A stretch of DNA of 64,000 nucleotides from Podarcis cretensis (Eukaryota): the NCBI GenBank assembly GCA_951804945.1, contig OX638163.1:18662001-18726000 (forward strand), written 5' to 3'. Below the pieces are notes generated by a model that saw only the letters and a program-made list of their open reading frames with translations, ran no database searches and had not been told where the DNA came from. Shown here piece after piece: positions 38,951 to 55,226 of this stretch. Position numbers and translations under genes: made by a program. How positions within the stretch are numbered: the stretch's first letter is position 1; every line of letters begins with the position of its first letter.

Positions 38951-39619
38951 GAATTTATGTGGGAGATGGAAATAAAAATCCAGTGCCACAGATAACAGCA
39001 TAACAAAATAATGGTTGATTTCCCAATCCTATGGAAAAGGGCTTCTTTTACTACAGTTAAACAATCGACAGGGCAGTGAATTTCCCTAATATGGGAGTTG
39101 TTATCGATGGGATTAGTTGCAAAAATTGAGGAAAAAGTGAAAAAAGGAGAGCTTACAAGGGTGAGCATCTGCGCCACTCCAGATGTTGTTTACCCCAGTG
39201 GCTCCCATCAGCATAACCGCTGGAAGGCTAGAGACCCCATCCTGCCTTTAATTTTTCCAACTTTTCCTTTCCAGGCAGGAGAAAGTAAATCAATTGTATG
39301 TTCACACTATGCACCGAAAGCGCTGAGAGACCACTTTAAAGAGCCCTGGCTCCCCCCTCCCCGCCCCCAGAATCCTGGGATCTGTGAGCTGCAGTTTGCA
39401 GAGTGGTTTGGCAATCAATCCCTTTTCGCAAGGAACTCCGGGAATTGTAACTGTAGAGCCTCGTATGCATCTCCAGTACCTTACACAAACTACATTTCCC
39501 AGTATTCTTTTCTTATGGGGGGGGAGGTGCAGAACCACGACTGGCTTAAAGCAATATGAAGCCACTTTAATGCACGTCATTGAATGTAGCCCAAGGCCAC
39601 AGCAAGGCCTTGGACTTTC

Positions 39620-40270
39620 CTCTCCGTTGCTAGGTAACCGCTTCCCGGTTCTCACTTCCGCCTTGGAGGCCGCGGCGGATTGGCGCCCTGCGATGACGCC
39701 ATCGGCCCGCGCGGCTCTTTCCTCGCCGCTGCTCCAAAGGAAGGAAGGCAGAAAAGCTGAGGGTACGAGAGAGACAGATCAGTCGTGGTGCCGCCGCCGT
39801 CCGTCCGTCCCTTCCTCCCGTCCCTCCCTAGCCATGAATAGTCTCCGCCGCCTCCGCTGGTCCCCGGTGAGTCCACGGAATGCCCCGCGGGTGAGTGTGA
39901 GGCGGGAGAGCCCCGATAATGCCTGGAAGGGTTGGGAGTGGTAAAGGGCTTCTGGAAGTCCCGACGGCGATGGTGTTTCAGCTGCATGTGGACCCGCTGC
40001 CCTCCTCCCCGTAGTGAGAATCCCCACAACAGCCCTGCGGAGTAGGCTGGGCGGATTCGTTGGGGCTTGCCCGGCTTCTGCCTGCCGCGCGCCATTCTCC
40101 CCCCCCCCCCTCACCCCCACGCAGCCAAACAAACGGGTGAATGGATGACCGGCCCTTTGGGCAGCCTGCAAGAATTGAGGCCGCCTGCCTTTTTCACGGC
40201 AAAAGGAATGCCCCTTCCTGGCGACTGCTGATGACTGAGCTGCTCTGTGGGTCAGCTGCCCAGCGCACCG
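39620..40270 (+). promoter_or_regulatory. TMEM250: CpG-island promoter of TMEM250
   Basis: High CpG density; X-box GTTGCTAGGTAAC 39626-39638, ETS CACTTCCG 39653-39660, inverted CCAAT (GATTGG) 39678-39683, CRE-like TGACGCCA 39694-39701; nearest island upstream of the CDS. Confidence 0.8.
39710..39866 (+). other. TMEM250: TMEM250 exon 1 (5' leader containing a uATG); start approximate
   Basis: Donor CCG|GTGAGT at 39866/39867 and alternative donor CGG|GTGAGT at 39890/39891. Confidence 0.7.
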
Positions 40271-40399
40271 TCCATGGGGTCACCAGAGCACCAGGCATGC
40301 TCCTGCTGTTGCTGAGTTTCCCTCCTTTGCCTGTTCGCTCCTGTGAATGTCGGGCTTAAGGAAGGCCCTGCAGAGGGTGGCAGGAAGCATCTCTGGTTT

Positions 40400-40545
40400 G
40401 GTTAGTGGTAGAGCGTGGTCTGCAGGTAGCATCTCCTCCAGGTAGGGCTGGAATCTTGCCTGAAGCCCTGGAGAACTGCTGCCAGTCCATGCGGGTGGGC
40501 AAGATGGGTCAATGGTCTGACCCTGTATTGGTCACCTTCCTATGT
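40400..40545 (+). mobile_element. Decayed tRNA-headed squamate SINE (Squam2-like)
   Basis: AGTGGTAGAGC head remnant, CCAGGTAGGGCTGG...CCCTGGAGAACTGCTGCCAGTC...AATGGTCTGAC. Confidence 0.5.
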
Positions 40546-40625
40546 GTGATAGCTGACAGAGAAGCACAAGGCATCTTTTATGTTATACTGTACTGGTAAA
40601 TTCAGATGGAAGACCTTTGTAGAAA

Positions 40626-40725
40626 TTTGTTGTAGTCGTTTAGTCGTGTCCCACTCTTCGTGACCCCATGGACCAGAGCACGCCAGGCACTCCTGTCTTC
40701 CACTGCCTCCCGCAGTTTGGTCAAA
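40626..40725 (-). mobile_element. Bov-B (RTE) LINE 3' end, 100 bp
   Basis: LTKLREAVEDRSAWRALVHGVTKS, CAA-type tail; 10-bp TSD TTTGTAGAAA at 40616-40625 and 40726-40735. Confidence 0.9.
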
Positions 40726-42569
40726 TTTGTAGAAACAGATGGTGCTTTTTCCCCCTGGGGATACGCAAAGGTATGCAGTACCAGCACCTTTTTTCCTAGA
40801 AGAAAACCATTGGTTAAAAGTGTGGCATTTACTGTAAAAACTTCATGGTGAGTACCAGCACTTTTTTCTCTAGGTGAAAAGTGCTGCTTATCAATAAACC
40901 CACATCTGAGTGAAAGAAATTGCTACATCATAGCAGAAAAGTTGCCTAGTGAGAAATAAGATGCAGACAAGATTCACTCATTTATGCATTAATTGTTTAT
41001 ATTCAGACATGCCACTTGAGTAGAGGTCATCTTTGCTTCCTGGGATTTACTTGTGCGGAATAAATCACAGCTTGCATGAGTGGGAAATCTGAGCTGGATT
41101 CTTGATCTGAAGCTGTAGTGCGCAAGTGGCAAAAGAGGGTTAGTGACCTTCATGAGAGGTCATCGAGCATGATGATAATAAGCTCCCCAAATCCACATCT
41201 TGTTCATCTCCACATATAAGGTATACACAGAGATTTTAAATTGATGACTGTGTTCCATATTGTAAGTGGCAGGTAGGGGCTATGCTGTGGAGGCAAAGTA
41301 GTTTAAGAAATTGTTGTGCTCAGCTGTGGTATCTGGAAGACAGGATACCCTATGCTTTAAGAACAAAGATGCTATGTCAGTGATTTTTAATAAACTAAGA
41401 AGGTTCCCCTGGCTCAGCAGAGGAATAATTCCTTTTCCCTTTCTTGGGTCAAGAGTCAAATGCAGATAGTTTACAGTGTCCTTGGAGGCAAGGATACTTT
41501 TGTAGGAGAGAAGTGCAGTCAGAATCTACCACTGACTGGGCTCTTATCTTGTATTTGTATTTGTTGCGTCAGAGTGTTTAGGAACATTGTGTATTTGTCT
41601 GGGCGAATTTGTCTCATAGTTAACGTTTTTCAGTTACTTTCCTTTCACTGTTGTCAGATTGGAGCTGTGCATGGCAAGTAGGCAGTGGTCTGGACTCATT
41701 GCTGCAGTGTGGATAGTGAGTATTAAACGTGTCTTCTGTGATGAATCCTCTGTGCTCTCATCAGCTATCTGGAGATCTAGTGGGTGGGATTTGCTGCAGG
41801 GGTGTTAGGCAGGATTGATTGATCACAAAATCAAGCCCTCAAACATCCCCTGGTGTAGCAGTGAAGCCATGGGCTTAAAAAAACCCCTCTCATAAAAAGC
41901 CTCATAGCTTGAAGTACTACTGTGTGTTTAAAACATGACAGATGCAGGGGAAATGTTACAGGTAGCCTCTCTGAAAGGGTCCTTCCAGATGCAAATGAAT
42001 GTACATTTTACATACGTGATGGTGTATTGTATGTGGGCTTTTCCCTGTACCTCTGACAACATGTCATATGTAAAATGGCCTTTTAGAATTCTCCTATTAC
42101 AGAAGTTACCATCCGGGTTCTTGACCAGCCTCTCTGTCCACCTTCCCTTTTTTTGTCACCCGGATAGAGCTCTTTCTGGTCATACACTCCCTGGCTTTCC
42201 ATCATCCAAACCAACCTACTTCCTTACCAAAGCTAAACTGTTTTTTGGCATTTTATTGATGACATTCTAGTCTAGTTGCTGATTTTTTTTTTTTGACTTT
42301 GCAGCAACTCAGCCAATGGTTTGGGATTCACCATCTGTCAGTTTTTAACCTACTTATGTGGTGTGAGAATTTTGCGTAAGCTGTTCATCTGCGATTCTCT
42401 TCCTAATGTATTAAGATCTCCATAGACTTCCCACCAATAGTTGTTCTCTTGCCCTTGTTCCATTAGAAATTTTCCAGGCTTGGCGATTGGCCAGGAAAAT
42501 CTTAGAGTGAGTTGATCAGTTAAAATCTGGAAATGTTTTGGAGCATTCATGGGCCAGGCCAGGTTGACT

Positions 42570-42875
42570 TTATAAGAGCAGCCTGCACAATCAGACCAAA
42601 GGTGGTCCATCTAATCCAGCATCATACTCTCATGGCCAACCAGATGCCCCAAAGAGAAACCTGCAAGCAGAACTTGAGTGCAACAGCGCTCTCCCCACTT
42701 GCAATTCCCAGCAACTGGTACTCAGAGGCATACTGCCTCTGACAGGAGAGGGAGAACATTGCCATTGTGACCAGTAGCCATTGATAGCCTTGTCCTCCTT
42801 CATGACTTTGTCTTGTCTTTATAATTCATCCAGGTTGGCCTCCTGTGGGAGCAAGCTATAGTTTGCACTGTGTGA
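42570..42875 (-). mobile_element. CR1 3' UTR fragment in TMEM250 intron 1
   Basis: Family sequence in antisense orientation. Confidence 0.72.
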
Positions 42876-43017
42876 CAGGTGGCTCTGGGTGACTCTGCTT
42901 TTGGCCGCTGTCTGGGAAGCAGCCTTTTGGCCAGCATGGGTGCAGATGGGTCCTGGTTTGGAGCCAGTCTTCCAGCCCTCTCCATGGTCCTCCTTGCCCT
43001 CTCAGGTTTTTTCTCAA

Positions 43018-43046
43018 CCTGACTCTCCTTCTGTTCCTTCCTGCAG
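43018..43046 (+). other. TMEM250: Probable main splice acceptor of TMEM250 exon 2
   Basis: Branch-like CCTGAC, pyrimidine tract TCTCCTTCTGTTCCTTCCTG, CAG|G at 43046/43047. Confidence 0.7.
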
Positions 43047-43187
43047 GCAGCCTCCATCCCGGCAAGTGCTTGTGCTCCTGGGTCGCCGGTCTTCCCCTCC
43101 ATCTCCACCTTCACCTTCATGGATGCTGCCTGGGTCCTCCCAAGCAATCCCTGCTCTCTGGCTCTGTAGAAGGTGGGGTGGTGCCTG

Positions 43188-43607
43188 ATGCCTGTCATCC
43201 CCATCCCGCGGCGGGTCCGCTCTTTCCATGGCCCCCACACAACATGCCTGCACTCTGCATGTGGGCCGGTCAGGACCACCCACTTGGTGCGCACCAAGTA
43301 CAACAACTTTGACATCTACCTGAAGTCCCGGTGGATGTATGGCTTCATCCGTTTCTTGCTGTACTTCAGCTGCAGCCTGTTTACCTCCATCCTGTGGGTG
43401 GTGCTGTCAGTCTTGTTTTGCCTCCAGTACCTCAGCATCCGGGTCTTTCTCCGTTTCCAGTATAAACTCACCATCTTCCTGCTGTTGCTGGGAAGGAGGC
43501 GTGTGGACTTTAGCCTCTTCAACGAACTGCTCATCTATGGCATCCATGTCACCATGCTGCTGGTGGGGGGGCTGGGCTGGTGCTTCATGGTCTTTGTGGA
43601 TATGTGA
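43188..43607 (+). CDS. TMEM250: Transmembrane protein 250 (C9orf69), 139 aa, CDS in a single exon
   Basis: MPVIPIPRRVRSFHGPHTTCLHSACGPVR...RTKYNNFDIYLKSRWMYGFIRFLLYFSCSLFT...GRRRVDF...GIHVTMLLVGGLGWCFMVFVDM matches vertebrate TMEM250 end to end; the ORF-track start at 43173 is a GTG. Confidence 0.97.
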   Translation: MPVIPIPRRVRSFHGPHTTCLHSACGPVRTTHLVRTKYNNFDIYLKSRWMYGFIRFLLYFSCSLFTSILWVVLSVLFCLQYLSIRVFLRFQYKLTIFLLLLGRRRVDFSLFNELLIYGIHVTMLLVGGLGWCFMVFVDM

Positions 43608-43616
43608 ATAAATAAA
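43607..43616 (+). terminator. Tandem AATAAA hexamers overlapping the TMEM250 stop codon
   Basis: TG-AATAAATAAA; AATAAA at 43607-43612 and 43611-43616. Confidence 0.35.
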
Positions 43617-43874
43617 AAACCAGTGCATGTCGGTCAAGGAGGCATGTTGGACTCTAACTTGGGTTAGGTCTTGTATGTGTGAATGCGTCCTCTTCTCCCT
43701 CACTTTGTCCTGCTGCTGAGGTTTATAAATTAATGGGTACTCGCTTAGAAGTAAGGATTGGAAGTTGACTTGGAAATTCATTTCTAATTCTTCATTGCCC
43801 TTGGTTGGTAATATGTGGAAAACAAATCGTATTTTTATCTGCTTCATTTTTTACCATAAGCACCTGCCATATGT

Positions 43875-44110
43875 GGCCAATGGCCCATCTAGTCCAGTGT
43901 CCTGTCCTCACAGTGACCAGCCAGATGCCTCATTGGGAAGCCCACAAGCAGGATTCAAGCACAAGAGCCCTCTCCCCTCCTGTGGTTTCCAGAAAATGGT
44001 ATTTGGAAGCGTTGCTGCCCCCAACTGTGGAGGCAGAGTATAGCCATCATGTTTAGTAGCCTTGTCCTTCATGAATTTGTCTAATCTCTTTTAGATCCAC
44101 CCAAAAGCCA
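43875..44110 (-). mobile_element. CR1 3' UTR fragment just downstream of the TMEM250 CDS
   Basis: Family sequence in antisense orientation. Confidence 0.72.
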
Positions 44111-53769: not shown

Positions 53770-54640
53770 TCTATGGCCGGGCGGGGAGGCTCCCTCCCCC
53801 CTCGTGAGCCCCCCCCCCTACCCCCAGTAACTAACACTGGGTGGGTGTGGGTGTGTGCCGCCTCCCACCCGCCCCCGTCAGTGTTGTGGGGCTGAGCGGG
53901 TAGAGGGCTAGGCGCCCCCCCGCCCGCCGCGCCTGCCTCCCCCCTCCTCCTCCACGATCACTTCCTGCCTCCAGCCGGGAGGAGCTGCCGCCGGGGAAGA
54001 AGGAAGGAAAGGAGGAGGAGGGGGAGGAGGGCCCCGCCGCTGGCCCCACAGGTAAGCCGTCCGCCTCCAGTCTTACCTCTCCCCAGGAGGGGGGGGAGGG
54101 GGTCTCTCTCTCTCTCTCTCCCCCCCCGCTTCAACCCCGCTTGCTCTCGCGCACCGAGTGGGGAGAGGGCGTCAGCTGCCAACCTCCCCGGCACTGCCCT
54201 GCGCCCCCTCTTATGTCACCCGAGTCTTCCCCACGCCCTAGAAGAGGACAGGACAGGATAGTAGAGATTCCCCAGCGACACAGCTGATTTCCTCTTCGCA
54301 TTCCCCCACATGAAGGGAAATCTGCAAGGGGGGACCCAAACTCGAGCACGGCTTATCCTTTTCCCAAAGTGGTCCAGGACGACTGTGTCTGCTGGGAGCC
54401 AGGCTGCTGCTCGCGTGGGGGACTCTGGAGGTTGGTGGCTTTCGTGCCCCATTACGGAGAGGGCGTAGCCTGGGGTGCGGGGTGGGGACACCTGAGTGCT
54501 GGTTGTCCAGGTGCTGCTTCTCCCGCCCTCTCCCCTGGCCGCGGGGGCTGCTGGGAGTTGGAGCGCAGCAGCACCAGCTTTCCCACCTCCCCGACAGTCG
54601 CCTTCTATCTCGCCCCTGCTTTGGCGCCCCTCCACACCTG
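53770..54640 (+). promoter_or_regulatory. CpG-island promoter, probably of NACC2 (synteny inference)
   Basis: CpG-rich, GC boxes (GGGCGGGG, CCCGCCCCC), ETS CACTTCCTG near 53960; about 10 kb downstream of TMEM250 on the same strand; no BTB-domain coding sequence in the window. Confidence 0.65.
53950..54051 (+). other. Non-coding first exon, probably NACC2; start approximate
   Basis: Purine-rich leader ending at donor CAG|GTAAGC 54051/54052. Confidence 0.55.
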
Positions 54641-55226
54641 CTCTTTGAAGAGAGGCACCGCAAATTCCCTTCTCTTTTTGTAGGGGGATGGGGGGCAATT
54701 TAGGACTCATTTCCCTGACACCTTCACCTGCCTGCTCTGCCAGCTGAGCACCTCCTTGCCAGTTCAGTGTCAAAGTCTGGGAAGGGAGAGCAGCACCCAC
54801 TGTCTCAGGACCCCTGAAAGGACAAGCGGCCCCAGACAGCCCACAACTGGTAAGTGTTTCTTCTTGGAGACCATCCCTCAATCCTTTTCTTTGCTGGAAG
54901 AAGGGGGACGCAGGCAGAAGGAGCAGCCCTCCATACCTGTTGCATCCCTTTCTGGGGTGAGGAAAGTGGTCCTCATTGGTTCAGGAGTTCTGTTCTGCTT
55001 CTCTTCACCTGTGCATGTCCCCCTCCCCCCTGTAAGAATTCTTTGGAGGGTTATGTCTGGTAGATTCTTCTTTGAATACAATTAGCTCAGTGTGTTAATC
55101 AAATTAACAGAGCAGGATAATGGGTGCAAGAGATGGTCAGCAAGCAAAAAATGGCTTATTGGCTGTCACTTTGCAGGGCAGGATGGTGTAAGTTTCCAAA
55201 GGCTAGAAAGAGCCAGAGGGCTAGTG

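Follow-up and report, generated by a model that had tools for sequence, protein, structure and literature searches.

The TMEM250 gene in a 64,000-nt stretch of Podarcis cretensis DNA (contig OX638163.1, positions 18,662,001 to 18,726,000; here the window, numbered from its first letter) probably has an ordinary alternatively spliced leader, with multiple upstream open reading frames (uORFs) as well as a single splice acceptor, that would damp initiation at a main AUG in weak context. A preliminary description of the window had proposed that choice among splice acceptors could switch the message between a uORF, a TGATG stop-start overlap and an N-terminal extension of TMEM250; the RNA reads speak against such switching. 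All features given below are on the + strand unless stated otherwise.

Splicing of the TMEM250 leader

Four of five available RNA runs, of which 6-13% each was read, were aligned to 39500-44000, with joints listed from 3 reads up, apparently per run. In the three bulk runs the exonic reads map to a single strand, which fits + strand RNA sequenced from a stranded library. The junctions, and with them the AUGs, frames and stops described here, are directly observed. All 34 listed reads that join the last exon use one acceptor, with 43047 as the first exon base: 12 come from donor 2 (1+2+2+7 by run), 7 from donor 1 (0+2+4+1), and 15 from the end of a cassette exon at 41715 (4+2+2+7). The donor 1 count takes the joint reported at 39848 to be donor 1 of an allele from which 9 nt (at 39843) are missing. 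The acceptor region (43019-43046) consists of a branch-point-like CTGAC (A at 43022), a pyrimidine tract (18/20) and CAG, and is the sole acceptor seen in RNA; it opens a 141-nt, A-poor (11%) leader portion of the last exon (43047-43187).

Exon 1 (39732-39890, from RNA depth and joints, its 5′ end approximate) terminates at 39866 or 39890, at donors 1 and 2 (GTGAGT at 39867-39872 and 39891-39896), both used and, as had been read from the sequence, both in phase 0. RNA depth begins in the 39651-39801 bin, with reads at 39732-39764 and none in 39500-39650; in one run (X20) it is 13 at 39732, 27 at 39738 and 39 at 39764. Depth thus starts upstream of the exon 1 ATG at 39834, which therefore lies within the transcript; a transcription start downstream of it, named beforehand as evidence against the proposal, is not what the RNA shows. 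The same had been said of an intervening exon that changes phase, and this is at least partly what is found: the cassette exon (41658-41715, 58 nt, one match in the genome), which the preliminary description lacked, is entered by 8 reads from donor 2 and 7 from donor 1, is present in 15 of the 34 spliced reads, and occurs in all four runs.

The frames on which the proposed switch depended do work on paper. Candidate YAG acceptors have first exon bases at 43006, 43047, 43051 and 43170, with an AAG acceptor at 43173; 43047/43051 and 43170/43173 are pairs of candidate AGs. Joined to donor 39867, either 43006 or 43051 gives a uORF ending at TGA 43186-43188, the predicted stop-start overlap, while 43170 or 43173 gives 156 or 155 aa in the TMEM250 frame, the predicted extension, through an acceptor-like TAG-AAG tandem (43167-43172). 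The four RNA runs have 0 listed joints (at least 3 reads being needed) into any of these four sites, and no RNA-supported isoform yields an N-terminal extension. Nor is there a step up in depth at 43170: depth in 42973-43123 (77 of 151 nt exonic) is 3.5, 2.9, 7.2 and 9.4 across the four runs and in 43124-43274 it is 6.0, 2.4, 10.3 and 14.0, and per exonic base the depth before 43170 is not below that after it. Regulated tandem (NAGNAG-type) or alternative acceptors would be marked by more than one acceptor in RNA, where these shallow data have one.

That acceptor choice nevertheless performs this switch in some tissue or condition is very improbable. One cobra gene model reads as use of an acceptor at +4, and three snake models (P0101, P0103, P0107) have 54-74 extra residues, starting at an exon 1 Met and continuing into TMEM250 with no stop between; these are gene models only, and the snake extension may be either a real lineage-specific feature or a modelling artefact. 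Against the switch, an AG at 43143 intervenes between 43170 and the nearest branch-like motifs (43113, 43119), and AGs at the +4 and TAG positions are absent from L002, the one locus compared for this, which is among three vertebrate-like TMEM250 loci found in a metagenome scan (two of them, L002 and the fish-like L004, with leader DNA). Candidate acceptors are also common by chance. Among 3000 dinucleotide-shuffled versions of 43047-43187 (with the last base kept, which inflates the stop-start figure), at least two acceptor-like AGs arose in 94%, an in-frame extension option in 71%, at least two kinds of outcome in 81%, an extension plus a uORF plus an overlap or stop-start in 16%, and the exact triple of uORF, stop-start and extension in 3.5%. 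Multiple acceptor options on paper are what is expected in a pyrimidine-rich stretch, and on the junction reads and shuffle frequencies together the acceptor switch was rejected.

Upstream AUGs and their reading frames

The main ATG at 43188 sits in the weak context already described for it, with C at both −3 and +4, and the four RNA-supported leaders place 3, 4, 4 and 5 upstream AUGs (uAUGs) before it. These lie within the transcribed leader, reads covering 39732-39890, the cassette, and 43047 onward, and all uAUGs of the four isoforms meet stops at −178, −21 or −2.

The first, at 39834-39836, described earlier as in good context, has G at −3 and A at +4. With direct splicing it opens a uORF of 51 or 59 codons; the cassette halts this at TAG 41679-41681, after 18 or 26 codons. 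The 51-aa form foreseen earlier (donor 39867 to 43047, ending at TAG 43167-43169) is reproduced in frame and carried by 7 of the 34 junction reads, the rarest of the three routes into the last exon. Four uAUGs had gone unmentioned. One (39880-39882, G at −3) is specific to donor 2 isoforms and opens 50 codons in the +1 frame in the direct isoform, ending at TGA 43186 (TGATG), or 63 codons with the cassette, ending at TAG 43167. Another, at 41671, is contributed by the cassette; its 55 codons rejoin frame 0, that of TMEM250, and also end at TAG 43167. The remaining two open constitutive uORFs: 43119-43169, 16 codons that share the TMEM250 frame and stop at TAG 43167-43169, and 43123-43188, 21 codons in the +1 frame, whose stop (TGA 43186-43188) overlaps the main ATG (43188-43190) as TGATG. 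The uAUGs at 41671, 43119 and 43123 all have T at −3. Since the uORF from 43123 is constitutive, TGATG is reached in every isoform without acceptor choice.

Exon 1 in the window contains two near-identical 9-nt units (39843-39860), one of which, at 39843, is missing from part of the RNA reads (14/36 in X20, and 4/13, 3/9 and 1/2 in the other runs), making the uORF three codons shorter.

The effect of this arrangement on translation can be predicted from the scanning and reinitiation model, which is established knowledge. Many ribosomes would initiate at 39834, the first AUG they meet; where its uORF runs for 51-59 codons and stops 18 nt before the main AUG, reinitiation should be poor. Ribosomes that initiate in the +1 frame (39880, 43123) would terminate right at the main AUG. 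Most TMEM250 would be made by leaky scanning, with ribosomes bypassing the three AUGs that have T at −3, and by reinitiation downstream of a short uORF. Inclusion of the cassette, which leaves the first uORF with 18 or 26 codons and its end 175 nt ahead of the main AUG but adds the AUG at 41671, would shift output modestly. Splicing would tune this brake and could not lift it, two of the uORFs being constitutive. Under the 50-55 nt rule for mRNA decay, the uORF stop in the cassette, 34 nt before its junction, lies too near to that junction to set off decay. The uORF peptides themselves are likely by-products. In this form the earlier suggestion of a bicistronic or reinitiation-controlled transcript is partly retained: a uORF-controlled transcript is likely, and neither a conserved micropeptide nor a bicistronic message finds support.

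Conservation of the leader

The L002 protein is identical to a sequence common to many tetrapods, including chicken, and its leader has kept the context of the acceptor along with TGATG, an ATG (at −66) and an in-frame stop (at −18). Its frame 0 uORF stops after 4 codons, at −54. Mismatches between the two leaders by codon position are 17/41, 14/42 and 19/41, as compared with 37-42% in the intron and with 8, 1 and 51 of 139 in the coding sequence; against this one outgroup, the leader diverges like intron, without codon periodicity.

For other species, gene models with extra N-termini were used as read-outs of frame 0. Two skink models align to frame 0 of the window (alignment scores of 75 and 59, with a shuffle p of 0.003), with Gln where the window has TAG, so that their frame runs on into TMEM250. 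Snake models resemble the +1 frame in one part and frame 0 in another, which implies an indel that shifts the frame, and an exon 1 start like 39834 is found in two of the three snake models compared (shuffle p 0.004 and 0.001). The distance from acceptor to ATG is 141 nt in the window, 133 in L002, 135 in the gene models of two skinks and about 136-139 in those of snakes; as it differs between lineages, phase is not kept. Neither are frame, start and stop, with skink models lacking the stop, snakes frame-shifted, and the L002 stop at −54. Codon-level conservation of the uORF frame was not found against L002 or in fish, snake and mammal models. By eye, fish seemed to conserve a +1-frame peptide, which a test for silent changes did not bear out; in the gene models no silent-type excess appeared in this frame (6 vs 8 in fish, 4 vs 7 in snakes, 7 vs 6 in mammals). 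Absence of conservation in the upstream frames had also been named as telling against the proposal, and this is at least partly the case, no coding conservation being seen.

A bicistronic message with a functional micropeptide encoded by the uORF is highly doubtful. In its favour, frame 0 has 40 codons without a stop and aligns in frame to the two skink models at the shuffle probability given above; the 9-nt deletion in RNA reads leaves it intact; and the longest uORFs of three of the four isoforms, as well as that from the cassette AUG, have this frame and its stop in common. Against this stand the lack of codon periodicity relative to L002, where a stop follows the matching AUG by four codons, the shift of frame at this point in snakes, the skink frame that has no stop and enters TMEM250, an N-terminus that differs in each isoform, and the A-poor composition of the stretch, which has few stops in any frame. 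A word search, insensitive for 40 aa, found no homologues of the micropeptide, and leader frames 0 and +1 have no Pfam family matches. A HMMER search of 1.84 billion proteins gave a single match, to a 470-aa tandem-repeat open reading frame scored over 7 repeats, which was rejected.

A different form of constraint is conceivable, in which selection retains a +1-frame uORF that stops at the start codon or slightly beyond it, with turnover of its AUG and peptide. This conserved positional brake is unlikely, if less so than a micropeptide. All three loci with DNA have such a uORF: AUG at −65 and stop at −2 in the window, AUG at −50 and stop at −2 in L002, and AUGs at −80 and −77 with a stop at +7 in L004, with shuffle probabilities of 0.21, 0.25 and 0.21, respectively; mammalian gene models, in addition, have their first Met 19-23 codons ahead of the main one. 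However, the window counts as the ascertainment case and shares homology with L002, the other two loci jointly reach about 0.05 in a test chosen post hoc, and the upstream Met of the bat and carnivore models is in frame 0, not +1. Annotated orthologues also argue against it. Among 149 proteins, 51 are extended (a redundant set, biased to open frames), and the residue before their main Met is Pro in 31, Leu in 15, Ser in 4 and Phe in 1; with Pro, Ser or Phe there, TGATG is impossible, which applies to 36 of the 51. A broader version, in which a sequence-independent +1 uORF brake is vertebrate-wide, its AUG repeatedly lost and regained, and the squamate exon 1 AUG gives a uORF here and an extended TMEM250 in snakes, seems similarly improbable. 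If a positional brake did operate throughout the vertebrates, TMEM250 would offer a clear example of selection acting on where a uORF lies and not on its peptide, and variants in its 5′ untranslated region (UTR) would be candidates for dosage effects.

The preferred reading, of an ordinary damping leader, has to be set against several observations that fit it less well. The exon 1 AUG is kept in some snakes, and a stop near −20 and TGATG are common to the window and L002; such retention exceeds what pure drift needs. The frame survives the 9-nt deletion, and a +1 uORF reaching the start codon is present in each of the three loci with DNA. The junction counts are low and were drawn from two studies under a single organism label; given the 3-read listing threshold, alternative acceptors could be used at a minor level of roughly 10-20%. 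The reads also depart from the window sequence at several positions, and their source may be a close relative.

Two further candidates were set aside. A single conserved N-terminal extension among the annotated orthologues was rejected, the extensions sitting in different frames. An apparent 24-54 aa extension in Logan proteins P0002 and P0091-P0094 has Trp where L002 (3382-3447) has TGA, and is likely to be a gene-caller artefact of a code reading TGA as Trp. No further orthologue DNA was found among 78 genome contig stretches and 45 viral contig stretches.

Comparison with known systems

Vertebrate mRNAs that are bicistronic or have conserved-peptide uORFs include ASNSD1/ASDURF, MIEF1 and MKKS, in which peptide and frame are kept across vertebrates. 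TMEM250 resembles these in having a 50-60-codon uORF before the main frame in a spliced leader, but its uORF peptide and frame are not kept. Stop-start overlaps also invite comparison with termination upstream ribosome-binding sites (TURBS), whose core motif is UGGGA; this core does not occur in 43047-43187 and occurs once in L002, at −28. The TGATG overlap itself is shared with viral termination-reinitiation, as described in the available portions of work on norovirus VP2 (PMC2793014) and of a review (PMC10275272). In TMEM250, by contrast, the upstream frame is a 21- or 50-codon uORF without a protein role.

uORFs are reported in over half of human mRNAs (PMC9648851, in part). As in the alternatively spliced 5′ UTRs outlined in part of PMC13631847, the TMEM250 donors and cassette alter uORF number and length while the protein stays constant. 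The lizard leader differs from those in having two constitutive uORFs, so that splicing cannot remove the brake, and in that its effect on translation is a prediction.

Human TMEM250 has a uORF of its own, c9riboseqorf108, catalogued by ribosome profiling (Ribo-seq) as a spliced, young frame of 53 aa in two exons; the accessible part of the catalogue gives PhyloCSF scores of −63 in primates and −224 in mammals, and 0 mass spectrometry studies (PMC10032668). By the same partial account, it belongs to the same gene, starts with AUG, is similar in length, joins exon 1 to the last exon and ends before the coding sequence. It is unlike the lizard uORF in its division (118 nt of exon 1 and 44 nt of the last exon, versus 33 or 57 plus 120 in the lizard), in its peptide as judged by eye, and in being classed as young in primates. 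The two uORFs are analogous in architecture. No main-text report treating TMEM250 together with a uORF was found in the literature, supplements lying outside the search. What is added here is a map of the leader, with two donors, one cassette, one acceptor and five uAUGs; as found it has little significance, alternatively spliced multi-uORF leaders being common and the human TMEM250 uORF already catalogued.

The coding sequence and other features of the window

The single-exon coding sequence (43188-43607, 139 aa) is full-length TMEM250: it matches Pfam PF17685 over positions 1-139 of 139 (E 1.7e-86; 288 bits, against a curated cut-off of 25), is 97% identical to a skink orthologue, and has a single match within the genome. 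TMEM250 is a highly conserved, poorly studied membrane protein, rare variants of which have recently been linked to stem-cell growth, according to the portion of PMC13261958 available.

Within the coding sequence, an out-of-frame ATG (43244-43312) with A at −3, a stronger context than that of the main AUG, opens 22 codons; in one RNA run, 9 of 9 reads have A>T at 43244, which removes it. An AATAAA beginning at 43607 (within 43605-43616) overlaps the stop codon, and RNA depth drops to about 0.5 past 43728. This may reflect a very short 3′ UTR, but mismatches in the local reads could also depress depth.

Upstream of exon 1, 39626-39703 is the promoter-proximal part of a CpG island (CpG observed/expected 0.97-1.03 at 39600-39900). 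It contains what we take to be an X-box-like motif (39626-39639), a reverse CCAAT (39679), a cAMP response element (CRE) half-site (39694) and a YY1-like site (39698), all putative. An ATG at 39693, in frame with that at 39834, lies inside the CRE-like motif and probably before most 5′ ends, and was left uncounted as a uAUG.

Intron 1 contains a high-copy repeat resembling a short interspersed nuclear element (40633-40725), with more than 1000 RNA reads per run, on both strands and continuing into unrelated sequence; lesser repeats lie at 42640-42830 and 43880-44000. A Pfam scan of 76 of the 109 long frames in the window, which does not establish synteny, gave one match only, to a reverse-transcriptase fragment on the − strand (1495-1920; RVT_1, E 2e-08), likely the remnant of a long interspersed nuclear element. 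The region 54001-55000 is an island with G+C of 0.61 and long open frames on both strands, free of Pfam matches, and is possibly a further promoter or a GC-rich exon.

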